Shown: one piece after another, positions 1-24,111 of the stretch
Position numbering within the stretch: position 1 is the stretch's first letter
How the letters are laid out: every line of letters begins with the position of its first letter
UHGV virus genome: UHGV-0138835
From: a virus
DNA length: 48,857 nt
Strand: one strand, 5' to 3'
Program-made: the position numbers and the translations under genes
Notes under the pieces: model-generated
What the model was told of the DNA's origin: nothing
The model's input: only the letters and a program-made list of their open reading frames with translations
Databases searched by the model: none

Positions 1-2375
1 CAGAAGATCTTTATAAAAAAGTTAAGGAAAACGCCGATGATATTGGTCAGCATGAGTCAAGAATTGACTCATTAGAAGTGTACAGCGAAAAAGTTGGCAG
101 CGAACTGGAGCAAGCAAAAGCAAGCCTGCAAAACGCGTCACTTGCTCTTATTAATAACTCACTTGCACAGACAAACACGCGCGTAACTCTTACCGCTCAG
201 TACAAGAAAGGCAGGACAGAGACTAAAGCGGAAATTGACCGTATTGACAACGTTATCGCTGAAGAGAAAAAAGCGACAGCGGAATCACTGGAAACCATCA
301 CAGCAGAAATGAATACGATGGATTCCAACCTTAAAGGTCAAATCTCTAACGTGCAACGAGCAGTAGCTGACGAGGCCAGCGCCCGCGCTGAAGCTATTAA
401 CGGTGTAAACGCCTCAATAAGCAATCTCGACAAGAAAACTGACGCCAGCGTTAACCGCCTTGATCAAGCTATCGCCGACGAAACAAGCGCACGCACCCAG
501 GCAGTCAGCGACGTTAACGCAAATATCTCAGCGCTTGATAAGAAAACTGACGCCAGCGTTAAACGTTTGGATCAAGCGATTGCAGACGAAACAAGCGCCC
601 GCAGCGAAGCCATCAGTGGAGTAAATGCCTCGGTATCAGCGCTCGACAAGAAAACTGACTCAAGTATAAGCCGTCTTGATAAGGCAATAGCAGACGAGAC
701 GAGCGCGAGAACTGAAGCCATTAACGGTGTGAAGGCGTCAATTTCCACACTTGACGGCAAGGTTACAAGTAACGTTAATCGTCTTGATAAGGCGATTGCA
801 GACGAAACGAAGGCACGCACTGACGCTATCAGTAGCGTGAATGCAAGCATTAGCACACTTGAAAGCAACACCGAATCAGAAGTAAGCAGACTTGATCAGG
901 CAATCGCTGACGAGGCCAGCGCTCGCGCACAAGCCATCAGCGGTGTGAATGCTTCGATAGAAAGTCTTGAAAGTAAAACCGATGCGAGCGTTTCCCGTCT
1001 TGATAAAGCAATAGCAGATGAAACGCAGGCAAGAAGCGACGCAATAACAGAGGTTAAAGCTGATTTAACAACACTAGAAAGCAACACAAACGCCAGCGTT
1101 AAGCGTCTTGATCAGGCAATTGCAGACGAAACAAGCGCCAGAGGACAAGCTATCAGCGAAGTTAGCGCAAGTGTCAGCACGCTTGATAATAAAGTGACAA
1201 GCAACGTCACCAGGATGGACAAAGCCATCGCCGACGAAACAAAAGCACGCACAGACGCAATAAGCGGCCTCAGTGCATCGCTTACCAGTACGATTAATTC
1301 AAAAGTATCTGAAGTGTCGACAGCGCTCTCTACGCATGAGGAATCAAGCGCGGAAAAATTTAGCCAGATCTCAGCGTCTTTCGAATCAGTAAACTCAAGT
1401 ATTACAGAATGGTCGCAGGCAATGGCAACGGCTGACGAGGCATTATCAAGCAAAATTGATCAGTTGACAGTAACAGTTAACGGGAACAAAACGGCGATAG
1501 AGACGACATCGAAAGCATTAACCGACTTCAAAGGTAATGTTGATGCGTCGTACTCTATCAAGCTGGCGACCGACAACAACGGAATGAAATACGCAACAGG
1601 TATGTCGCTTGGCCTCACTGGTGACGGCACTAACTTTCAGTCGCAGTGTATTTTCCTTGTTGACCGTTTCGTGTTAATGACCGCAGCAAACGGCACATAT
1701 ACAACGCCTTTCTATGTCACCAATGGCGCAATGTATGTAAGAGAAGCGTTTATTAAGGACGGAACTATCAACTCCGCCAAAATAGCTGATCAAATACAGT
1801 CAGTTAATTACAGCTGGGAAAACGGTACAGGATGGGCGATAAATAAAGCCGGTGACGCAGTATTTAACCAGGTAACCGTAAGGGGTACGGTATACGCTTA
1901 TGCTGGTGTGTTTAACGGTACTGTTTACGCAACTGGCGGTAAATTTACTGGAGCAGTTGAAGCTACAAGTTTTGTTGGTGACGTAGCAAGTATGTCAGTG
2001 ATAAACGAGGATGTATTTCCGTCAATGAGGGGAAATGGCAGCAGGCGCGTTTCGAAAACTTATCTTGATTCAAGTTCATCAAGTTTATCAAAAACAGTTT
2101 ACGTTATGATTCCGTATGATTTGTCATACTATACATATAGTGAATCTTCTCGCATCAATGTAACTATAAATATAAGCGGACACCAAAAAACAATTAATAT
2201 AGAAAGGCCAGCATCAACCCCAGCAATGTCAACTGTCGCGGTGCACTGTGTATCTGGCCTCACATACCCAACAATTACAGTAGAGGTGACGGAAAACTTT
2301 ACCAATACATCTAATGCAGCAATAAGAAAACCAGGTTTAATACTTATAACAAGAAGTTCAGGAACATGGATATAA
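1..2375 (+). CDS. tail fiber / host-specificity protein, 5'-partial (reading frame open to window start, codon phase from nt 3)
   Basis: No in-frame stop upstream of the track ORF start at 78; nine tandem 36-aa repeats of consensus RLDxAIADETSARxxAIxxVNASISxLDxKTxxSVx, then a Gly/Thr/Tyr-rich beta-type C-terminus typical of fibers; position just before a second fiber and attP/int. Confidence 0.7.
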   Translation, partial: EDLYKKVKENADDIGQHESRIDSLEVYSEKVGSELEQAKASLQNASLALINNSLAQTNTRVTLTAQYKKGRTETKAEIDRIDNVIAEEKKATAESLETITAEMNTMDSNLKGQISNVQRAVADEASARAEAINGVNASISNLDKKTDASVNRLDQAIADETSARTQAVSDVNANISALDKKTDASVKRLDQAIADETSARSEAISGVNASVSALDKKTDSSISRLDKAIADETSARTEAINGVKASISTLDGKVTSNVNRLDKAIADETKARTDAISSVNASISTLESNTESEVSRLDQAIADEASARAQAISGVNASIESLESKTDASVSRLDKAIADETQARSDAITEVKADLTTLESNTNASVKRLDQAIADETSARGQAISEVSASVSTLDNKVTSNVTRMDKAIADETKARTDAISGLSASLTSTINSKVSEVSTALSTHEESSAEKFSQISASFESVNSSITEWSQAMATADEALSSKIDQLTVTVNGNKTAIETTSKALTDFKGNVDASYSIKLATDNNGMKYATGMSLGLTGDGTNFQSQCIFLVDRFVLMTAANGTYTTPFYVTNGAMYVREAFIKDGTINSAKIADQIQSVNYSWENGTGWAINKAGDAVFNQVTVRGTVYAYAGVFNGTVYATGGKFTGAVEATSFVGDVASMSVINEDVFPSMRGNGSRRVSKTYLDSSSSSLSKTVYVMIPYDLSYYTYSESSRINVTINISGHQKTINIERPASTPAMSTVAVHCVSGLTYPTITVEVTENFTNTSNAAIRKPGLILITRSSGTWI
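348..1319 (+). repeat. 9 x 108-bp tandem coding repeats (36-aa units) inside the tail-fiber gene
   Basis: Repeat units read directly from the translated ORF (aa 91-414); explains the spurious minus-strand ORFs 572-871, 896-1087, 1112-1453. Confidence 0.85.
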
Positions 2376-2832: not shown

Positions 2833-5800
2833 ATGATTTACACAACTGGAACAATTGCCATCAACGGCAATGCTGTTACAGGCACGGGAACAAACTTTTC
2901 CGCGCCGCTTTCTCTCATTCGTGTAGGCTGCACGCTCATTGCAATCGGCAATCCGGTGCAGATCTTTACCATCACAGAAATTAAAAGCGGTACTGAACTG
3001 TCAGTGACGCCAGCAGCTAACCCTGCAATCCCTGCGGGAACAAAATTTAGTATTCTGCTATCTGACTCAATCTCAGTTGATGGTCTTGCTCAGGACGTAG
3101 CTGAAACCCTGCGTTACTACCAGGGCAAGGAAACAGAGATCGCCGCCGCTGTCGAGTGGTGGGAAGATTTTGGCGGAGAAGGTCAGTTGGATCAGCTTCT
3201 TACCAACATTCGCGCAGAAACAGCCAAATCAACCGCCAATGCTCAAAAAACAGAAACTGACAAAAACGCAGCAGAAGCGTCAAAAACAGCGGCTGCAAAA
3301 TCCGCCACGGCAGCGAAAACATCAGAAACCAACGCTAAGGCAAGTGAGACAGCAGCAAAGACAAGCGAAACCAACGCCAAAACGTCAGAGAACAGGGCGC
3401 AAGAATATCTAAATCAAATGGGAAGGCTTACCAGTCCAATGGTTCAATGTGATTGGCCCGTTACAACTGGTACGACTGACGCTTACGTTAAGATAGCTAA
3501 AGTTACCAACCCAGGTAGCAGCTCCTGCCACATGACACTAATGATCACTAATGCCGGTAACTACGGGACAAGTTACGGAAACATTGATTTTGTCGAGATC
3601 TCCGCTCGCGGTTTTCCCGATGAACTGAACGCCGATAATGTATCTAAATACTTGAGTATCCGCCGCTTAGGTTCACCAAATCTGGCAACTGATAATCAGA
3701 TGCGTTATGGGCTTGTTAAGGGCGATAACTTTTTTGAGGTCTGGTGTCGTCAGCGAGCATTTACCGGAAGCGCAAAGGTCGCTGTACTGGCGCAGACTAA
3801 TCAAAACACGGAATTATACATTCCCGAAGGATTTGTTAAACAAGACAATGCACCATCAGGATTTATTGAAAGCCCGGCAGCAAGGATTTACGACCAGGTA
3901 AACAAACCCAGCAAGGCGGATTTGGGCCTTTCTAACGCTATGCTTATAGGCGCTTTTGGTCTTGGCGGTACTGGAATAGGGTTGACTGGTTACATGACTG
4001 ATCAGGAACTACTACAAGAGCTAAGGGCTAAAGGTGGGTGTTTCTGGAGATCAGGAAAACCAACAGGTAGCACGGCGACCATTTATAGCCACGGTTCTGG
4101 TATATTCTCGCGGTGCGCCGATACGTGGTCAGCGATCAATATCGACTACTCAACCGCGAAGGTTAAGGTCTATGCCGGTAACGACAATGGACTTAACAAT
4201 AACACTTTTGCCGTTAATGAGCTATACGGAACTAAAAACAAGCCGTCGAAATCAGATGTTGGACTTGGCAACGTAACGAACGATGCGCAGGTGAAAAAAA
4301 TCGGCGATGTTATGTCTGGTGACCTGGCGATCAAAAAAGGGACACCGTCATTCTTTCTGCGGTCAGACAGTGGAACCGCCCATGTATGGTTCCAAAATGC
4401 GGATCAGACGGAACGCGGCGTTATTTTTGCGCCTACAAATTCTGAGACGCTTGGTGAAGTTCACATCAGGGCTAAAAACGCAAAAGGTGAAACAAACGGT
4501 GATCTTATTGTTCGCCACGACGGGGTGGTTGAGGTTCAGAATCTCACAGCGGCTAAAAAAGCCAAAAGCGTAACCGCAGAATTTGCAAACACAAGCACTA
4601 GCTCCGATGATACCACGGTAAATATCAAAGGATCACAGCATACGCCTTTGGTTTTAACGCGCAACAACACAATTAAAAACTTATCCATTGGGTTTAAGGT
4701 TGATGATGTTGATCAAAAATACCTGGGTATAGCTGGCGACGGTGATTTGTATTTTGGTAGTTATTCTGACCACACAAAAAACAGCAAAGTGATCACACAA
4801 GCAATACTCGATAGCGGGGTAACGGTAGGCGGTAAAACAACCTTTTCTGACCTTGCCACATTCAGTGCTGGTATATATGGGGCCATAGAACCGGAAATAA
4901 TTAACAGCAAGACTGTAGATCTTAACAACCTTGTCATTAAGTCCTCTGATAAAGGTTCAGTTAAGTATTATCAATGCACATCTTCCGGGGCTGGTAACTC
5001 CATTACCAATAAGCCTGACGGCGTAGGCGGTAACTTTTTGCTACGTGTAGAATCTATTCGTAAGGTTACGGATTCAGATTATACAAACTTGCAAACCCTG
5101 GTTGGCACAGACACGAAACAAATATACGTTCGCTATTGTGAAAATGGCAATTGGTCCGCATGGAGTCAGGTTGTTGTTTCAGGAAGGAATCAGGATGTAA
5201 ACGTAAGGTCGTTAACCACTGGTACCCCTGTAAAATCTGGTGGCGGGCAAATTGATGTACTTGGGAGTACGTCAGATTATAGCGCGATGAATTGTACTGT
5301 GCGTGGTGTTGATAGCACTGGAACCAATTCGGCGTGGTCGGTAGGTACATCAGAAAGCACAGGAAAAATGTTGTACCTGAAAAACCACAGAAGCAGCGCT
5401 CAAGTGCTGTTAAATGGCGATGACGGCGCGGTGCAACTACTAAGCGGTACCGTCAACAGTGCTACAGCACAGGCGCTAACCATCAACAAAGATGAGGTTA
5501 ACTCAACTGCCGATTTAGTAATTAGAAAACAAACAGGGACTGGCAGTCGTTTTGCTTTACAGAACGCAGGTAATGCAGAACTACCGTTTTCTGTCAGTGT
5601 GTGGGGTTCCAGTACTCGACAAAACGTTTTTGAGGTTGCAACGTCTGCTGCGTATCTGTTTTATGCGCAAAGAACGCCAGCAGGCCAGTTGTTTGATGTA
5701 AATGGCGCTATTAATTGCACAACGCTGAATCAGTCATCAGACCGCGACCTTAAAGACGATATTCTCGTTATCAGCGACGCGACGAAAGCAATCCGTAAAA

Positions 5801-10861: not shown

Positions 10862-12277
10862 TTAAAAAGATGCGTTATTCTGATTGTTTCGTTGGCTAAA
10901 TCGGCTTGTACGATGATTCATGGACTGAATGCACGCGGCGGCGGCCTTACCCTGGTCGCATGGTAATATATTGCCGTTGTCATCAAACCGCTGGTAAATA
11001 GTACCAGTTTTCCCGTGACGGTTTTTAGATACAATTATTTCCATGTATTCGCGTGCTACAGACTGCTCATCGTAATAACCATCGCGGTAAACCATGATGA
11101 TCCTGTCAGCGTCTTGCTCAAGGTTCCCTGAATCTCGAAGATCTGAATTATTAGGGCGCTTGTTAGGTCGTTCCTCAACGCGGCGGGATAACTGGGCCAG
11201 CGCCAACACTGGTACACGCAATTCTTTCGCCATCATCTTCAACGACCATGACAATTGCCCTACAGCGAGATCGTGACGTTCGGCCTTAGCCAGCTTCATC
11301 AACCCGATGTAGTCAATCATTACCATACCCAGGTTGGGGTGTTCCTGTTTCATCCGTTCCGTGGTGGCGCGTATTTCCTCAACCGTTAACTGCGACGCGT
11401 CAACGATCCACACATCAAGATTAGCAAGTGCACTCATACCCTGGCCAACATGCGCCCACCCCTCATCATCAAGTTTTACCGGATTGCGCAGGCAGTCAGT
11501 TGATAAATTGCCAGCGCCAGCTATAGCGCGCTCAGTCATCTGATCGAGCGACATTTCAAGCGTGAATAACAAAACACCAACCCGCTGATCCTTGCTGCCA
11601 GGGTAAGGGCGCTCAGCAGCAGCGCGGGCAATCGCCAGCGCCAACGCAGATTTACCAGACCCAGGGCGTCCGGCGAGAAGTACCAAATCAGTGGCGTTAA
11701 TACCGCCTAACATTTCGTCGAGCGGTTCTATCCCTGTTTTGATGTTGTCAGAATTGACACCGCATTCCATGCGCTTGCTTAAAACCTCTGTGTATTCCTG
11801 TACCGCATCGCGCAACAGAACAGGGATAATCTTGTCTTTCGTTACCTTTAATTTTGAATACCGGGAATCAAAATCTTTCATCGTCTCTTTGACGACCTCA
11901 AGCGTACCCGTTTCCAGTTTGTAGCGCATATCGTCGATGAGTTCCAACATCTGACGCCGCTGGTGCTCTTCCCGTAGTAGCTGTGCGTACCCCTTCAGGT
12001 TGGCAGCAGAAGGACACGATCGCGCCGTTTGCATTAGCGGTACAAAGTTTTCGTTGCCAATCTCATCGCCAACCAATAACGCATCGATAAGATTCCTGTT
12101 TCTGGCTTGCGCCCTGATAATTTCAAACGCACGTTTATACAGCGGAATCGTGAACACTTCAGGATCAAGAGTGGCGAGAACATCTTGCGCGTTAGGAGTT
12201 AGGCCGCCTAACAGCAGCCCGCCGATAACTGACGCTTCACGTTCCTGCCGTAGTGAGTTTATTTGCTCAGTTACCAT
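10862..12277 (-). CDS. replicative DNA helicase, DnaB family
   Basis: N-terminal DnaB-like ERAVLGGLLL-type motif (EASVIGGLLLGG), Walker A GRPGSGKSA, length 471 aa. Confidence 0.85.
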   Translation of the reverse strand: MVTEQINSLRQEREASVIGGLLLGGLTPNAQDVLATLDPEVFTIPLYKRAFEIIRAQARNRNLIDALLVGDEIGNENFVPLMQTARSCPSAANLKGYAQLLREEHQRRQMLELIDDMRYKLETGTLEVVKETMKDFDSRYSKLKVTKDKIIPVLLRDAVQEYTEVLSKRMECGVNSDNIKTGIEPLDEMLGGINATDLVLLAGRPGSGKSALALAIARAAAERPYPGSKDQRVGVLLFTLEMSLDQMTERAIAGAGNLSTDCLRNPVKLDDEGWAHVGQGMSALANLDVWIVDASQLTVEEIRATTERMKQEHPNLGMVMIDYIGLMKLAKAERHDLAVGQLSWSLKMMAKELRVPVLALAQLSRRVEERPNKRPNNSDLRDSGNLEQDADRIIMVYRDGYYDEQSVAREYMEIIVSKNRHGKTGTIYQRFDDNGNILPCDQGKAAAACIQSMNHRTSRFSQRNNQNNASF

Positions 12278-13447: not shown

Positions 13448-14191
13448 CTACTTACACGCAAAAAGTTCAGATACCCAAAGCTGCCCCTTAGCGGTAAATA
13501 GTGATTGGACGTAACCTTCAGCCGAACATTTTACCACTCCATAGCCTTTTTCTACGAACCACTGTTTGAACATACGCCCACCGCGCTTAATTCGCGTATC
13601 GTACACGTCAACCTGTTCAAGTTTTTTGTTGAGTTGCGTAGCAGTCATACCCAAAGGCTTAGCGACCTGTGTAGCGTTGCGATGCTGTTCGTTTTTTGCA
13701 ATAGCATTATAAACAGCCGCTTTCGGTGCTAATTCCTTATTTTCCAGCGCCAGACGATCAACTTCTTTCTGTGCTAATAGTTTTTGCTCTACCTCATCCG
13801 CCCATGCGCGAGCAGCCGCAACCGGATCAGTGAAGTCCGGCAAAGCTGGTTTAAAACCGTAATGTCCATTTTCACGCAAAGCAGGGAGAACTTCTTCACA
13901 CACCCAATCCTGGAAGCGCTCAGCAAATTCTATTTTTGATCGCATCACAAGGCGGTACATATCTGATTCATGAATTAGCGTTACGCCTTGCGGTTTAGGG
14001 TCAAAACCCAAACACTGCATTTCACCGTATTTGATTTTAATCAATGACTTACAATGTTGTTTTAGAGCGTCCGCAGGTCTGATATACCCCAAAGCCCGCG
14101 CCACATCCATTGCAACAAAAGCAGGTTTACCATCATAAATTACAGCAGTGATTTTATTGTCATCAAAATTAAAACACATCAACTCAGACAT
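13448..14191 (-). CDS. antirepressor, Bro-N / KilA-C domain protein
   Basis: N-terminal Bro-N signature (FNFDDNKITAVIYDGKPAFVAMDVARALGY); start taken at ATG 14191 with GGGGAA SD. Confidence 0.7.
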   Translation of the reverse strand: MSELMCFNFDDNKITAVIYDGKPAFVAMDVARALGYIRPADALKQHCKSLIKIKYGEMQCLGFDPKPQGVTLIHESDMYRLVMRSKIEFAERFQDWVCEEVLPALRENGHYGFKPALPDFTDPVAAARAWADEVEQKLLAQKEVDRLALENKELAPKAAVYNAIAKNEQHRNATQVAKPLGMTATQLNKKLEQVDVYDTRIKRGGRMFKQWFVEKGYGVVKCSAEGYVQSLFTAKGQLWVSELFACK

Positions 14192-14323
14192 TGTAATTTC
14201 CCCGCAAAACGCTCTACAACGCAAAAATCCCACCGCGTAACACGTTCGCACATGTTGCAGTGTATTATTGCGCCAGAGGCGCTATCAGGTGGCTAATTTT
14301 TGATTTACAGACCGGTAGGTAGG

Positions 14324-14425
14324 TTATGGATTGACTAGAAGGAACAAACCGCCGAATAAGGCGACGTTAACAGCGATTGCCGCAGCGATGGCAAAAGCCA
14401 TGGCGAAAACGTGTTTACCGTCCAT
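14324..14425 (-). CDS. possible micro-ORF (33 aa), hydrophobic single-helix peptide MDGKHVFAMAFAIAAAIAVNVALFGGLFLLVNP
   Basis: Read by hand in the gap between the antirepressor and replication genes; weak SD. Confidence 0.25.
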   Translation of the reverse strand: MDGKHVFAMAFAIAAAIAVNVALFGGLFLLVNP

Positions 14426-14558
14426 TTTAAAATTCTCTCTGTAACGCTCTATAACGAGCTAATCGCAAAAAGGTAAGCAAGTATAGCACCACATGCGATT
14501 TATCTCGCTGGCGAGCTTGTTTTGCTGGTTATTTTGGGTTTTTGTGGATCGTGGTTAG

Positions 14559-15611
14559 TCAAAGAGCGCCAGCGCGTGTATCGCGTAGCGTTTTTGGTTT
14601 AAGCAGGAAATCAAGTGTCGCAGTGAAGCCATCGCCGAAGTAAAAATCTGAAGCCTTGTTTTTGAATGCTTCGAAGTAGGCGATAAAGCCGTTAATGCTT
14701 TTGTCTTTCAGGTAGTCAGTGAACGCATAGATCTTGCGTTCAAGATCCCGATCAAGTTCAGCAGGTGGCAACAGGCCGTCAAACGTGATGTTAAACTCTT
14801 CCACCACATCGGCAGCGTTTACAGTAGCTGATAGCTTGCGCCATTGTTCAGCGTCAGCCAGATACCCATCGAATTTAGTTACCCGGCAAATGTTAACAGG
14901 CTTAGGTGTTCCGCCACGGCTACGCCATTGCGTTAAAGCCCACTCAATCACTAATGTGATCTCATCCTCCGTATATGCTTTACGTGTTTTTGTTTCTGTC
15001 AGTAGTTCGATGAACGGTTTAGCATCACGACATTTACATCCTGCCTTGTCGTTGTAGAATGCCAGGCAACGCAATGCCGCTTCGTTTACGCCATCCTGAT
15101 TGAACATTTTTTGTTCATTTTCGACAATACACGAAGTGTATATATCTTTTTCTCTTTCTTTTTCTATTTCTAATTCTAATTCATGACCCTTTCCTGACCC
15201 GGTCATGACCCTATCATGACCTTTTTGTGTTGGATTGATTAACTTTTCTAATTTTAATTGCTCCTTCGCTGTGTTTATGGCGGCCCTGTAAGCGCTTTTA
15301 GAAGTCATTGATTGGTCCAGCCTTTTCAATAACTTTAAACAAGTTATGTGGCCTTGAGAACATTCAAACAAACCAATTTCGATGAAGTATTTCATCATTT
15401 CTTCTATACGTTTTTCAGTAGATCCGACGTTTCGCGCAATTATTCTTGCGTCATGTCGTAGGTCAAAAGTTAGATTGTGCTGATCTACGTCATAAGTTAT
15501 TAGTTCTAGGCAATACCAATAAAGCCCGTATCCTTCCAGTCCATAATCTAATAAAACGTTTTGAAGTTTTTCATCGCGGTTCGCATCGCTATCATGCTTA
15601 AACCACTTCAT
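14559..15611 (-). CDS. replication initiation protein (replisome-organizer-like N-terminal domain), contains internal iterons
   Basis: N-terminus MKWFKHDSDANRDEKL…GLEGYGLYWYCLE typical of phage replisome organizers; iterons in the linker region. Confidence 0.6.
   Translation of the reverse strand: MKWFKHDSDANRDEKLQNVLLDYGLEGYGLYWYCLELITYDVDQHNLTFDLRHDARIIARNVGSTEKRIEEMMKYFIEIGLFECSQGHITCLKLLKRLDQSMTSKSAYRAAINTAKEQLKLEKLINPTQKGHDRVMTGSGKGHELELEIEKEREKDIYTSCIVENEQKMFNQDGVNEAALRCLAFYNDKAGCKCRDAKPFIELLTETKTRKAYTEDEITLVIEWALTQWRSRGGTPKPVNICRVTKFDGYLADAEQWRKLSATVNAADVVEEFNITFDGLLPPAELDRDLERKIYAFTDYLKDKSINGFIAYFEAFKNKASDFYFGDGFTATLDFLLKPKTLRDTRAGAL
15138..15221. repeat. putative origin of replication: AT-rich tract plus four 9-bp iterons (TCATGACCC / TCCTGACCC) at exact 11-bp spacing
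   Basis: Iterons at 15181, 15192, 15203, 15214, immediately after the tract tatatatctttttctctttctttttctatttctaattctaat; located inside the initiator gene as in lambda O. Confidence 0.5.
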
Positions 15612-15614
15612 AGA

Positions 15615-15869
15615 TCATTCCTCCGGCAATGCAATGTCATAAATGTCGCCGTATTCGTCAGCGCGTTTAATGAATCCTTTGCGGATCAATGAATTTAATG
15701 CGTCAACAGTAGTATGCAGTGGTAGTTCGCACACTTTTGCGATCTCTTCGCGTGAAGCATGTGCGCGGCCTTTGTTGTCTGCCTTTTCTGCAAACGCAAT
15801 TAAGACAAGTTTTTGGATCGGGCTGTTAAGTTTTACGTTCCATACTTCATTCATCATGTGCATACTCAT
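15615..15869 (-). CDS. winged-helix HTH protein, first gene of the leftward early operon (Cro position)
   Basis: 84 aa, divergent from the repressor gene; HTH-like segment SREEIAKVCELPLHTTVDALNSLIRKGFI. Confidence 0.5.
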   Translation of the reverse strand: MSMHMMNEVWNVKLNSPIQKLVLIAFAEKADNKGRAHASREEIAKVCELPLHTTVDALNSLIRKGFIKRADEYGDIYDIALPEE

Positions 15870-16174
15870 CTTGTTTTTCTCCTATGGTTAGAGTGAACGC
15901 GCGGGCGGGCATCCCATTAGCATTAGATAGCAGTGACTGACCGCTCAACAGATCCCGCCGTTGCGTGATATTTGTTTTTCGCTTCGCAGCGACACCGGAT
16001 TTTTAAAGAGCTTAAGGAATTGGCCTTTTGTGCTTTCCTTTATCTTTTTTCTTGCATCATTGCAACTATGGCCTTACCTTGTCTGCAAGTTTACATAATG
16101 GCTTTAACAGGTCAAGGCTTGAAAAACACGTTTTGTGACTTGCATCAAACTTTTTTAGGTTATAGGGTAGCGAC
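15870..16174. promoter_or_regulatory. divergent immunity regulatory region (OR-like) with repeated CTTGCATCA motifs and a candidate leftward boxA/boxB
   Basis: CTTGCATCA at 16051 and 16139; TTTACATAATGG at 16090; minus-strand boxA-like GCTCTTTAAAAA (plus 16000-16011) followed by a hairpin at plus 15979-15992. Confidence 0.45.
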
Positions 16175-16822
16175 ATGAAAACAAAATGGTATGACTTAGC
16201 AAAGCAGCTCATGCGGGCGCAGGGCATGAGTCAGGATTCATTGGCTGATCTCATGGGGATAACCAAAGGTGGCCTTTCGCACTGGCTGAACGGTCGCCGT
16301 GAGCCAAATCTTGAAGATATTGCGCGGATCATGCGGGCGCTTGGGCGTCGGCAGTTTACTGTCACACATGACGGGATGGTTATCGATGATTCTGTTTCTA
16401 ACACGTTACCGGGAGCGCCACCGCGTGATTTAGGCAGTTACCCGGTTGTTGACTGGAAGGATGTAGCAAACAATATGGAAGGCACATGCCGATCAACATT
16501 GCCACACATTACTACTAGCGTTATTTGTTCGGATGATAGTTATTGGCTGGTTGCTAAAGGTGAATCAATGAACGCACCGCAGGGGTTAAGCATCCCGGCG
16601 GGGACTATGATACTCGTTGACCCGCACGCGCCAGCTATTGACGGAAAACTTGTTATAGCACAACTGGAGGAAGGGCAGATACCTACGTTTAAACAGTTGA
16701 TTATTGATGGAGGCCGAAAACTTTTGCGTTCACTGAATCCGTTGTATCCGCCGATCCCTATGAATCCAGAGTCAAAAATCATTGGCGTGGTTGTTGATGC
16801 GAAGATCGTAAACCTGCCATAA
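16175..16822 (+). CDS. CI-type repressor (HTH_XRE + LexA-like S24 peptidase domain), P22 C2-like
   Basis: C-terminal domain closely matches recalled P22 C2 (GSYP…SEDS.WL…G.SM.AP.GLSIP.G..ILVDP……GKLV.A.LE…..TFK.L..D.GRK.L..LNP.YP.I…….KIIGVVVDAK..NLP). Confidence 0.9.
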   Translation: MKTKWYDLAKQLMRAQGMSQDSLADLMGITKGGLSHWLNGRREPNLEDIARIMRALGRRQFTVTHDGMVIDDSVSNTLPGAPPRDLGSYPVVDWKDVANNMEGTCRSTLPHITTSVICSDDSYWLVAKGESMNAPQGLSIPAGTMILVDPHAPAIDGKLVIAQLEEGQIPTFKQLIIDGGRKLLRSLNPLYPPIPMNPESKIIGVVVDAKIVNLP

Positions 16823-16827
16823 ACATT

Positions 16828-16853
16828 AGCCGCCTGGTGGCGGCTTTTCTTTG
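16828..16853 (+). terminator. rho-independent terminator after repressor gene
   Basis: agccgcc-tggt-ggcggct hairpin followed by TTTCTTTGTT. Confidence 0.6.
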
Positions 16854-16946
16854 TTCGAAAAAACACCAAAACGTAAACAGAAAACGCTATTTATTGTTTA
16901 AATATCAATAGTATATAAAATATTTTAAAAAAGTATACAAAATGGA

Positions 16947-16975
16947 TTGACTCGATGTTATACGGGGAGTATATT
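16947..16975 (+). promoter_or_regulatory. candidate sigma70 early promoter (pL-like): -35 TTGACT, 17-bp spacer, -10 TATATT
   Basis: Hexamers and spacer read directly; upstream of the nut site and the N-like gene. Confidence 0.5.
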
Positions 16976-17016
16976 GCGAGTCAAAGGAGGCAGCAAGGCA
17001 GGGAAGGAAGGTTACT

Positions 17017-17110: not shown

Positions 17111-17401
17111 ATGAGCGTTACAATTATGTATGGAAAATGTGATAGCAAAATGAACGCCAGGGAACGCAGAAGGATAAAAAGAGAAAACGAAAGAAAATCA
17201 TCACCTGCAATTAATAAAACAGACAATGTGGATAAAGCTATTCGATTTGCAAACGAGGAAAGGTGCAAACCAAATAGCATTAAAGAACGTCGCAAAGGAT
17301 CAGTAAAATGGTATACGGAAAATGAAAGCGGCAGCTACTACCACGCAACGCAACCACGCCATTTAGGGGAGAAACCCCTGGATAAAGTCCGTTACCATTA
17401 A
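17111..17401 (+). CDS. N-like transcription antitermination protein (P22 gene 24-like)
   Basis: N-terminus MSVTIMYGKCDSKMNARERRRIKRENERK resembles recalled P22 gp24 (MTVITYGKS…AKTRRHERRRKLA) with an arginine-rich motif; first gene after promoter and nut. Confidence 0.6.
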   Translation: MSVTIMYGKCDSKMNARERRRIKRENERKSSPAINKTDNVDKAIRFANEERCKPNSIKERRKGSVKWYTENESGSYYHATQPRHLGEKPLDKVRYH

Positions 17402-17550: not shown

Positions 17551-18192
17551 GTGAAAACAGAGTTACACAAAAAACTGTGGACGATTCAGCAAACGCTGAA
17601 CGCGCCGAAAAATCAGCGTAATAATTTCGGCGGATACAATTACAGGTCGGCGGAGGATATTTTAGAAGCGGTCAAACCACTGCTTCAAAGTATTACGCTG
17701 ACTGTAAGCGATGAAATTGTCCTGATCGGCAATCGCTATTATGTGAAAGCCACTGCGACACTAAGCGACGGTGAGGATGAAATAGCGGTAACTGCTTACG
17801 CCAGGGAGGAAGAAAGCAAGAAGGGAATGGACGCAAGCCAGTTAACTGGCGCGACATCAAGTTACGCGCGTAAATACGCGTTGAACGGATTGTTCTGTAT
17901 TGACGATGCGCGTGATCCTGATACTGATGCATACGCCAAGCAGACAGGCCAGCAGCCTCGCCAACAGAAAAACCCACCAAAACAACAACCACAGCAGCAG
18001 AAGGCGCCGCCAAATCCTGACGAAGTGTTAGCGCGTTTCTGTGATGCAGCAGCGAAAGCGCCGGACGCTAACAAGTTACGCGAGATCTTCGGCAAGTGCT
18101 GGAAGCTATTGCCTAAGGATTCAGAACAACAACAGAAAGCGAAAGACGTTTATGACATTCGCTTGAAAGAGCTTAACGGGGAGATCGGTTAA
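17551..18192 (+). CDS. erf: Erf single-strand annealing recombinase
   Basis: Strong match to recalled P22 Erf (…LNAPKNQ.N.FG.Y.YRS.EDILE.VKPLL……SDEIVLIG.RYYVKATAT..DGE………AREEE.KKGMDA.Q.TGATSSYARKY.LNGLF.IDDA.D.DT); GTG start with AAGGAG SD. Confidence 0.9.
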   Translation: MKTELHKKLWTIQQTLNAPKNQRNNFGGYNYRSAEDILEAVKPLLQSITLTVSDEIVLIGNRYYVKATATLSDGEDEIAVTAYAREEESKKGMDASQLTGATSSYARKYALNGLFCIDDARDPDTDAYAKQTGQQPRQQKNPPKQQPQQQKAPPNPDEVLARFCDAAAKAPDANKLREIFGKCWKLLPKDSEQQQKAKDVYDIRLKELNGEIG

Positions 18193-18605
18193 TGAGCGTA
18201 AACTCAATCACACTTGGTGGTAACGTTGGCAACGATCTAGAAGTGCGCTACACGCCTAGCGGGAAAGCAATCGGTAGCTTCTCGTTGGCTGTTCAACAGG
18301 GCTACGGTGATAACAAACGTGCAATGTGGGTGACGTGCCTGATATTCGGTGAGCGTGCGGAAAAATTAGCGCCACATATCCGTAAGGGGACGAAGCTGGT
18401 TGTAAGTGGTCGTCTGGACGTTCGCCAGTACGATCGGAACGATGGCACGAAGGGGACGGCGGTCGAAGTAGCGGTTAATGACTTTGAGTTCATGGCAGGA
18501 GGTCAGCAGCAGGGCCAGCAGCAGGGCCAGCGCCAGCCACCGCAACAGAATCAAGGCGGCGGCAATCAACCTCCGATGGACTTCGATGATGATATTCCTT
18601 TTTGA
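18192..18605 (+). CDS. ssb: single-stranded DNA-binding protein
   Basis: OB-fold-like N-terminus, Gly/Gln-rich linker and acidic C-terminal tail DFDDDIPF. Confidence 0.85.
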   Translation: MSVNSITLGGNVGNDLEVRYTPSGKAIGSFSLAVQQGYGDNKRAMWVTCLIFGERAEKLAPHIRKGTKLVVSGRLDVRQYDRNDGTKGTAVEVAVNDFEFMAGGQQQGQQQGQRQPPQQNQGGGNQPPMDFDDDIPF

Positions 18606-23587: not shown

Positions 23588-24111
23588 ATTGGGAAGATTA
23601 TTTTATATACAATCCAGACACGGGTAAATTGTACTGGAAATGTAGAAATGATATAGATGAATCAAGGCGTAAACAATGGAATGCGTGCAACGCTGGTCAT
23701 GAAGTTGGATATATTGGCGGTAGCGGTGGTTATCTTAACACAGCGCTTACCGTAGGCGGGAAGCGTTATAATTTAAAAGTTCACAGAATATGTTATGAGA
23801 TGTACTATGGCCCAATACCTGAAGGTAAGGAGGTTGATCATATAAATCACATTAAAACAGACAATCGAGCCGTCAATCTTGAATTAAAAGACCATAAAGA
23901 TAATATGCGCAATATGTCTTTGATGGTAAACAATACCAGTGGATGCGCTGGTATCCATAAAAATAAACATGGTAAATGGGTTGTTAGAATAGGCGGAGGC
24001 AAAAGAGGCGAGAGGGTTTATATAGGGTGTTTTTCTGATATTAATGACGCAATAAAAGCACGACGCGACGCTGAAAAAGAGTATGGCTATCATGAAAACC
24101 ACGGCAAATAG
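23584..24111 (+). CDS. HNH homing endonuclease with AP2-like DNA-binding domain
   Basis: HNH core HRICYEMYYGPIPEGKEVDHINHIKTDNRAVNLE and AP2-like GIHKNKHGKWVVRIGG…YIGCFSDINDAIKARRDAE. Confidence 0.8.
   Translation: MNWEDYFIYNPDTGKLYWKCRNDIDESRRKQWNACNAGHEVGYIGGSGGYLNTALTVGGKRYNLKVHRICYEMYYGPIPEGKEVDHINHIKTDNRAVNLELKDHKDNMRNMSLMVNNTSGCAGIHKNKHGKWVVRIGGGKRGERVYIGCFSDINDAIKARRDAEKEYGYHENHGK

Follow-up and report, generated by a model that had tools for sequence, protein, structure and literature searches.

A candidate replication origin of short phased iterons inside the replisome-organizer gene of a temperate coliphage

The virus genome UHGV-0138835 (48,857 nucleotides; this whole stretch is called the window) very probably has its vegetative, theta-type replication origin at positions 15127-15260, inside the part of the replication initiator gene (rep) that encodes the linker between the two domains of its product. 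A candidate origin within the initiator gene had been proposed from the letters alone, and comparison now supports that proposal through repeats that stand out at the DNA level, their position in the linker, the swapping of the region as a cassette among sibling phages and the matching layout of phage Tuc2009. The region has 95% identity to Escherichia phage MagusPhagus and 93% to mEp515, and it is partially similar to mEp021, mEp010, mEp554, mEp044 and mEp013. Judged by sequence, the window phage is a temperate coliphage of the mEpimmI group, the Nus-dependent, non-lambdoid group of MagusPhagus and the mEp phages that is common in the human gut (PMC11893012). The elements of rep and of the proposed origin are:
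14559..15611, minus strand: replication initiator or replisome-organizer gene rep, 350 amino acids (N-domain, origin-encoding linker, C-domain)
15237-15611, minus strand: N-terminal Lin1244_N winged-helix domain of Rep, about amino acids 1-125 (Pfam and model)
15181..15222, minus strand: array of four iterons, GGTCATGA / GGTCAGGA in gene sense, with 11-bp spacing and 8-9-bp cores
15138..15180, minus strand: A+T-rich tract, proposed DNA-unwinding element (DUE), with a purine-rich gene-sense strand and a 6-nt period
15127..15141, no strand: 15-bp palindrome ATACAC-N3-GTGTAT at the end of the tract away from the iterons, unique in the window
15222..15260, no strand: A+T-rich flank beyond the iterons, opposite the tract, with a second copy of a 16-mer of the tract
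14559-15086, minus strand: C-terminal domain of Rep, amino acids 176-350 (PHROG matches)

Four iterons had been described at 15181, 15192, 15203 and 15214, and the sequence has them there with an exact start-to-start distance of 11 bp. On the plus strand they read TCATGACCC (15181-15189), TCCTGACCC (15192-15200), TCATGACCC (15203-15211) and TCATGACCT (15214-15222), with the consensus TCATGACC(C/T)/TCCTGACCC, and the fourth ends in T, not C. Within 15120-15260 the plus strand runs ...CAATACACGAAGTGTATATATCTTTTTCTCTTTCTTTTTCTATTTCTAATTCTAAT TCATGACCC TT TCCTGACCC GG TCATGACCC TA TCATGACCT TTTTGTG.... Tandem Repeats Finder reports 15180-15225 (period 11, 4.2 copies) as the sole short-period array of more than 3.5 copies in the 48.9-kb window, and 15181-15228 ranks first of all 48-nt segments of the window for self-match at lag 11 (0.73, with the runner-up at 0.57). 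The window has six occurrences of the word TCMTGACC where 1.7 would be expected, and five of the six lie at the array, four on the plus strand and an overlapping one on the minus strand. A second iteron cluster, of the kind of oriR in phage SPP1, was not found in the window: a further TCATGACC stands alone at 23695, and there is no short-period array besides this one. The placement of the repeats in the linker-coding part of a replisome-organizer-like gene holds as well: codons 131-144 hold the iterons and codons 144-157 the tract, both downstream of the final helix modelled for the N-domain (amino acids 106-125) and ahead of the C-domain.

Adjoining the iterons is the A+T-rich tract of about 40 bp that had also been described, with 83% A+T at 15139-15179. 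In gene sense it is made of the hexamers TTAGAA TTAGAA ATAGAA AAAGAA AGAGAA AAAGAT, for which Tandem Repeats Finder gives a period of 6/12; on the plus strand it is about 81% pyrimidine. By nearest-neighbour free energy, only two other 40-bp segments of the window form a less stable duplex (z=3.4). One 16-mer of the tract (15160-15175) recurs as TTTTCTAATTTTAATT at 15244-15259 in the opposite flank, 84 bp away, and this pair (family D2) is present in the window, MagusPhagus and mEp515.

Repeats inside a coding sequence could be merely a low-complexity protein linker (GHD-VM..., ELELEIEKEREKD) with no function as DNA, and the segment does encode a charged inter-domain linker in which the hexamer period of the tract is in frame. 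The 11-nt period of the iterons, however, is out of frame, so that a single DNA word encodes three different peptides: the word falls in frames 0, 2, 1 and 0 (GHDRVMTGSGKGHE), and GGTCATGA is translated as GH(D), (R)VM, (G)SG and GHE. The sequence-only reading had named such repeated amino-acid motifs as what would refute it, and this was examined computationally by resampling synonymous codons with the window's own codon usage. The repeats exceeded what codon usage gives: the lag-11 self-match of the iterons was 0.70 against 0.41±0.07 in resampled sequences (p=0.0004), and the lag-6 self-match of the hexamer tract was 0.83 against 0.59±0.06 (p=0.0002). As a control, all 16-codon windows of rep were treated in the same way, and p<0.01 was reached only by those starting at codons 123-137. 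In eight relatives and in the lactococcal phages r1t and Tuc2009, each tested singly, both elements likewise beat synonymous resampling (p<=0.009), and in relatives the tract has a period of 5 nt, which is also out of frame. Amino-acid repetition as an explanation of the pattern is rejected on the frame argument together with the resampling and its within-gene control. The periodicity beyond codon usage fits selection acting on the DNA itself.

Viral contigs scanned for relatives of the N-domain yielded 80 loci, 37 of them from the E. coli group and 43 more distant. The E. coli-group loci together with the window, MagusPhagus and mEp515 give 22 distinct sequences, in which 2 of 32 sites vary in the iteron cores against 6 of 9 in the spacers (Fisher p=4.5e-4). 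Third codon positions are variable at 1 of 10 sites in the cores, whereas 69 of 130 vary in the coding part upstream (p=0.017), and both variable core sites belong to the already degenerate third iteron. Purifying selection on the iteron cores is supported by these alignments. Spacers that vary next to cores that do not also argue against a mere protein linker, which is extremely unlikely as an account of the repeats and the tract.

The iterons also form a hairpin, and the plus strand could accordingly be read as an intrinsic terminator or structured RNA antisense to rep, with iterons 3-4 as the stem (15201-15221) followed by TTTTTGTGTT. A terminator-like match spans 15201-15231, the hairpin GGTCATGA-ccctA-TCATGACC has a folding energy of -11.4 kcal/mol (z=-4.3 against shuffles), and weak promoter-like plus-strand sites are located at 15033-15060 and 15121-15148, from which a short antisense RNA ending at the hairpin could start. 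Such promoter-like matches are not in excess, though, with 5 against 2.9±1.9 in shuffles, and a terminator leaves iterons 1-2 and the strict 11-bp phasing unexplained. The GGAACC array of r1t and the CAACCA array of Tuc2009, whose cores are not palindromic, persist without any hairpin. As two adjacent copies of the palindromic TCATGA core give a hairpin automatically, it is best seen as a by-product, and an antisense terminator is very unlikely.

Comparison of the window with its mEp siblings shows a module swap. A block comprising the following elements is replaced as a whole in mEp021, mEp010, mEp554, mEp044 and mEp013, with BLASTN break-points at 15080/15116 and 15875/15876 and flanks that are 88-98% identical:
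15081..15875, minus strand: exchangeable specificity cassette (small winged helix-turn-helix open reading frame, N-domain, iterons and tract), delimited by the BLASTN break-points
15615..15869, minus strand: small open reading frame (ORF) of 84 amino acids directly upstream of rep, with a winged helix-turn-helix (wHTH) of the HTH_36 family (Pfam/PHROG)

When rep was aligned across eight phages, two unrelated N-terminal halves appeared, while the final ~85 residues hardly differ between any of them. The whole C-terminal domain is common to seven of the eight, mEp013 diverging in its first ~90 residues. In the replacing block, here called type B, the N-domain is a lambda-O-like HTH_36 domain, and the same linker position carries four 22-23-bp dyad iterons (GGTAGTGACACAGAGTCACCGG in gene sense) and then an ATATAT-containing tract. 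Since N-domain, iterons and tract are replaced together over a constant C-domain, they are inherited as one cassette, and joint exchange of this kind is the classical signature of an origin-specificity module. The type-B iterons themselves vary by phage (GGTTGCTCTCTGCCAC... in mEp021, GGTGACTCTGTGACAC... in mEp010, GGTGTCTCTCTGACAC... in mEp554), which suggests several specificity subtypes; the type-B loci are L001, L003, L005, L006 and L007 (mEp021, 010, 554, 044 and 013, respectively), with an example at 3785-3872 of L003. Of 5,426 complete E. coli genomes, 28 have prophages with the same rep module as the window, where the only RefSeq label of the protein is 'Lin1244/Lin1753 domain-containing protein'.

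The break-points raise the question of whether the array is some other helically phased site, either for packaging (pac- or cos-B-like, bound by the small terminase) or as a hotspot or junction of module exchange. Terminase recognition sites can be phased direct repeats, and the array has the break-point of the mosaic (15080-15116) and the shared palindrome (15127-15141) as immediate neighbours. Yet the array sits in the early replication operon. It is exchanged with the initiator N-domain and not with a gene for packaging, and along the N-domain family its core changes. A break-point at this location is also expected if N-domain and origin must swap together. A packaging site or exchange hotspot is therefore hardly credible as the explanation of the array. 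The palindrome, which adjoins the break-point, occurs in 33 of the 37 E. coli-group loci and in none of the 43 more distant ones. It is found as well in four of the five type-B mEp phages, in a different reading frame (IYTSCIV against NNTLRVL), and this indicates either conservation at the DNA level or a shared exchange junction. It is possible that the palindrome is an accessory element of the origin or a junction for module exchange.

Beyond the E. coli group, most of 35 distinct relatives (N-domains 41-75% identical) have 3-5 iterons at ~11-bp spacing with an abutting purine tract around codons 105-140. A strict-chain repeat detector under-called the divergent arrays, which were read by eye after alignment on the purine tract and from lag autocorrelation. 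The iteron core is GGTCATGA in the E. coli group, RCCATGG (five copies) in L043/L044, RTCATGA (3-5 copies) in many marine and Vibrio-like sequences such as L053 and L067 (in L053, GAGTCATGATG five times), and GTCCCGACA/GTCGGGACA in the most distant branch, L077-L086. The joint change of core and N-domain is supportive of the origin as proposed, not conclusive.

A purine tract also follows the iterons in most relatives, in r1t and in Tuc2009. Its repeat unit is 6 nt in the window and 5 nt (AGATW / AGGWW) in marine relatives, r1t and Tuc2009, for example at 2900-2955 of L053, in L058 and L067, at 4252-4296 of L089 (r1t) and at 3488-3545 of L090 (Tuc2009). The tract is read in all three frames, and its sequence is near-identical in Lactococcus and marine Proteobacteria phages. 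Perhaps, then, it is no passive melting DUE but a sequence-specific array of 5-6-nt purine-strand repeats (AGAWW / NNAGAA), an idea that is tentative and on balance doubtful. Such an array could serve the organizer or the helicase as an ordered single-strand or half-turn-phased duplex binding lattice, analogous to DnaA-trios. Arrays of the AGAWW / NNAGAA type span phages of Lactococcus to those of marine and enteric Proteobacteria although iterons and N-domains diverge. If the idea is true, there would be a widespread bipartite origin grammar of one-turn iterons and half-turn purine repeats.

Among origins already described, those of P335-type lactococcal phages resemble the window most. The replisome organizers ORF13 of TP901-1 and Rep2009 of Tuc2009 bind direct repeats within their own genes, and these repeats are the origin (PMC8965321). 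The GenBank record of Tuc2009 carries the note 'contains origin of replication' on its rep gene, which has CAACCA four times at exact 11-bp spacing, then about ten AGGWW pentamers and a fifth CAACCA (repeats at 3437-3476 of L090, inside rep at 3097-3879). ORF11 of r1t has GGAACC four times at 11-bp spacing followed by three copies of AGATAAGAATAGATT (repeats at 4211-4249 of L089, inside ORF11 at 3896-4630). In both phages, as in the window, the origin repeats are embedded in rep, in the stretch that separates the N- and C-terminal domains, and four iterons with 6-bp cores phased at 11 bp precede a purine-rich, short-period tract on the coding strand. They differ in their Firmicutes hosts, in their cores (CAACCA and GGAACC) and in the tract period of 5 nt instead of 6 nt. 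Their N-domains have no match to Lin1244_N, and their C-domains belong to Rep_Org_C and Phg_2220_C, whereas the C-domain of the window protein has no Pfam match. Further, r1t pairs with a DnaC-like loader and the window phage has its own DnaB-type helicase. Cross-matches between the proteins appear in PHROG families 1163, 20981, 428 and 5968: the window protein matches phrog_1163 (E 7e-9) and phrog_5968 (E 1e-4), Tuc2009 Rep matches phrog_1163 and phrog_5968, and r1t ORF11 matches phrog_20981 (E 1e-17) and phrog_428. A possible protein homology of the window Rep to the Tuc2009 and r1t organizers is suggested by these reciprocal cross-hits.

The sequence-only reading had instead likened the arrangement to the origin of lambda within gene O. 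The embedded layout bears that likeness out, while the lactococcal type is the closer model: the window combines 8-9-bp iterons at one-turn spacing, a Lin1244_N domain and its own DnaB-type helicase. Lambda has its origin in the middle of O, where four iterons are succeeded by a strand-asymmetric, A+T-rich tract of ~40 bp and finally by a palindrome. The gene-sense order in the window is the same, with iterons from 15222 to 15181, the tract from 15180 to 15138 and the palindrome from 15141 to 15127. The N-domain of lambda O determines origin specificity and its C-domain the specificity for the helicase system, N-domain and origin being exchanged together. Lambda differs in that its iterons are dyads of ~18-19 bp, bound by O dimers and spaced ~20-23 bp, against 8-9 bp at 11 bp in the window. 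The window N-domain is Lin1244_N rather than Phage_rep_O: neither whole Rep nor the N-domain alone matched PF04492 (Phage_rep_O) among the matches listed, which for the N-domain extend to E=5 with most of those above ~0.1 dropped. It is the type-B siblings (mEp021 and others) that are truly lambda-like, with their four 22-23-bp dyad iterons and HTH_36 N-domain. The iteron and O-protein context of lambda is treated in PMC7466680.

Two further systems share part of the arrangement. Replication initiators of iteron plasmids (RepA, RepE, pi, TrfA) are winged-helix proteins that bind direct repeats beside an A+T-rich DUE, as proposed for the window; plasmid iterons, however, are 17-22 bp long and lie outside the rep gene, whereas those of the window are 9 bp long and intragenic. 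The Rep proteins of iteron plasmids are built from tandem winged-helix domains, RepB of pMV158 acts as a rolling-circle nuclease, and at E <= 0.01 the window Rep matched no Pfam domain of either type, Rep_3 and related families included. Direct repeats of 11 bp are described for the 'bind' locus of pMV158 RepB (PMC4753449 and PMC9943647). In SPP1, gp38 binds the oriL direct repeats within gene 38, beside an A+T-rich DUE, and the phage has a DnaB-family helicase (PMC6316719), all of which is like the window; SPP1 differs in having the second origin oriR and the dedicated loader gp39, the window being without a second iteron cluster. An embedded origin with short phased iterons and a melting tract is thus a known kind, of which the window is an ordinary, previously unannotated example. 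For this particular origin, and for Lin1244_N as a probable iteron binder in Proteobacteria phages, no earlier report was found in the searchable literature.

As for the protein that recognises the iterons, the Lin1244_N winged-helix domain is most likely the binder, on the combined grounds of covariation, fold and precedent. Residues 3-87 of Rep match Pfam Lin1244_N (PF14297, formerly DUF4373) with 43.3 bits at a cut-off of 25, and the N-domain alone scores 45.4 bits. Its AlphaFold model (36-sequence alignment, mean predicted local distance difference test score, pLDDT, 70) contains a helix-turn-helix and a beta-hairpin, a fold compatible with a DNA-binding winged helix, and resembles the ORC2 winged helix, staphylococcal RepA and the N-terminal domain of DnaD. 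Residues of the recognition region correlate visibly with the iteron core (KRLDQ versus SRTDE), a correlation confounded by phylogeny and left unused as evidence. RefSeq and many phage records list Lin1244_N/DUF4373 as a 'domain of unknown function', and a literature search for 'DUF4373' gave unrelated Bacteroides papers only. A search of Rep against NCBIfam returned no family, and a sequence search against solved structures no significant match.

The small upstream wHTH ORF was considered as the main iteron binder, since it is part of the swapped cassette, and rejected. Phages that have the same iterons, and N-domains of 94-99% identity, carry versions of this ORF that range from 58 to 100% identity, and tblastn (E<0.01) did not detect it in the distant loci L045-L087 or in L043, most of which keep the iteron array. 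As the small ORF does not track the iterons and the N-domain does, the N-domain remains as the predicted binder. The 84-amino-acid ORF is similar (34% identity) to the origin-binding domain at the N-terminus of type-B Rep, and also to the N-termini of PHROG 'replication initiation protein' families, and it may act as a Cro-like regulator or as a modulator of initiation. It is the first ORF of at least 40 amino acids on the rep strand past the intergenic region between cI and rep.

The surroundings of rep are those of an early replication operon, of which two further genes matter for the proposed mechanism:
16175..16822: divergent cI-like S24 repressor gene, beyond the 84-amino-acid ORF
10862..12277, minus strand: phage DnaB-family replicative helicase gene (Pfam DnaB_C, E 7e-76, and DnaB N-domain)

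Transcription passes from rep to a Bro-N/ANT anti-repressor-like gene, an exonuclease-like gene and the helicase gene, the last about 3 kb downstream. The Pfam scan covered six window proteins (Rep, the small wHTH ORF, the three genes downstream of rep and the cI-like repressor), and PHROG searches covered three proteins. The C-terminal part of Rep (amino acids ~176-350) matches PHROG 'replication initiation protein / O-like' families and no Pfam family. Rep would be made from transcripts that start in the early promoter region beside the cI-like repressor gene, and its Lin1244_N domain would then bind the four GGTCA(T/G)GA iterons, oligomerise and distort the DNA. With iterons 11 bp apart, the protomers would sit roughly on one face of the helix, a geometry that would favour oligomerisation. 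The strand-asymmetric purine hexamer tract, whose low stability is shown by calculation, would melt next, and the constant Rep C-domain would recruit the phage DnaB-type helicase, its proposed partner, after which the host replisome would follow. That the C-domain does the recruiting is suggested by the mosaic pattern and by the analogous pairs lambda O/P and P22 gp18/gp12; P22 (gene 18, with the gene 12 helicase) also encodes its own DnaB-type helicase.

The segment 12296-14251, between rep and the helicase gene, varies among mEp phages when the window is compared with L001-L007. It holds the Bro-N/ANT anti-repressor-like gene in the window and an HNH/homing endonuclease, a zinc-ribbon protein or other ORFs in the others, and looks like a hotspot for morons or insertions inside the replication operon. 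Elsewhere in the window, 108-bp (36-amino-acid) tandem repeats at 426-659 lie inside the plus-strand ORF 78..2375, with units of the type LDKKTDASVxRLDQAIADETSAR. The 765-amino-acid product has many further degenerate 36-residue copies along its length and is probably tail-fibre-like.

Several observations weigh against an origin at 15127-15260. Origin activity in the window phage is deduced from comparison, and the shift of the iteron core along the N-domain family is a covariation confounded by phylogeny. The mEpimmI genome paper mentions neither an origin nor iterons (PMC11893012). No DnaA box lies within 2 kb of the array, and no helicase loader, P-like ones included, was recognised by Pfam on six genes or PHROGs on three; with neither at hand, the helicase-loading step is purely conjectural. 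The PHROG cross-matches may be driven in part by the low-complexity segment that the tract encodes. When the N-domain profile was compared with r1t ORF11 in hhalign, the tract-encoded peptide alone aligned (probability 14%) and no N-domain homology was seen, so that no membership in one protein family is claimed. Foldseek matches of the N-domain model to the PDB were non-significant (E>=0.16), and the model is of moderate confidence (pLDDT 70). The iterons could, additionally or instead, serve autoregulation of rep. A lone perfect DnaA box, TTATCCACA, is present at 17227-17235 on the minus strand. The cumulative GC skew has its minimum at ~15-15.5 kb, which coincides with the proposed origin within the region 13500-17000; it was not used as evidence, as transcription changes from leftward to rightward at ~16 kb and confounds it.

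Taken further, autoregulation would make the array purely regulatory, a set of operator sites for Rep or the small wHTH protein acting in autorepression, as a transcriptional roadblock or by titration, with replication starting elsewhere, such as at 16897-16937 or in a recombination-dependent manner via Erf/SSB. Plasmid iterons often double as autoregulatory sites. The least stable 40-mer of the window is 16897-16937 (93% A+T), and Erf-type recombinase-like and SSB-like proteins are encoded at 17551-18605, to judge by the annotation of homologous ORFs in related phages. No repeat array accompanies 16897-16937, however, and this segment is promoter-like in its position between a terminator-like hairpin behind cI (~16829-16856) and the next plus-strand operon; it is probably a promoter or UP region. 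Iterons and tract are moreover kept together throughout the family, whereas a regulatory site needs no conserved melting tract, and both the Tuc2009 record and the literature put the origins of Tuc2009 and TP901-1 at direct repeats inside rep. A purely regulatory role is thus unlikely, and an origin in the rep linker remains the probable function of 15127-15260.

For the mEpimmI coliphages this region is the first concrete, testable proposal of a replication origin. The group would have at least two interchangeable cassettes of origin and initiator specificity on a common, helicase-recruiting C-domain. With it, the embedded-origin layout of lactococcal phages would extend to phages of Proteobacteria, and Lin1244_N/DUF4373 would gain a probable function as the origin-binding domain of a replisome organizer. 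The 130-bp fragment itself could confer 'phage-encoded resistance' by titration, or it could serve as a marker when replication modules are typed.

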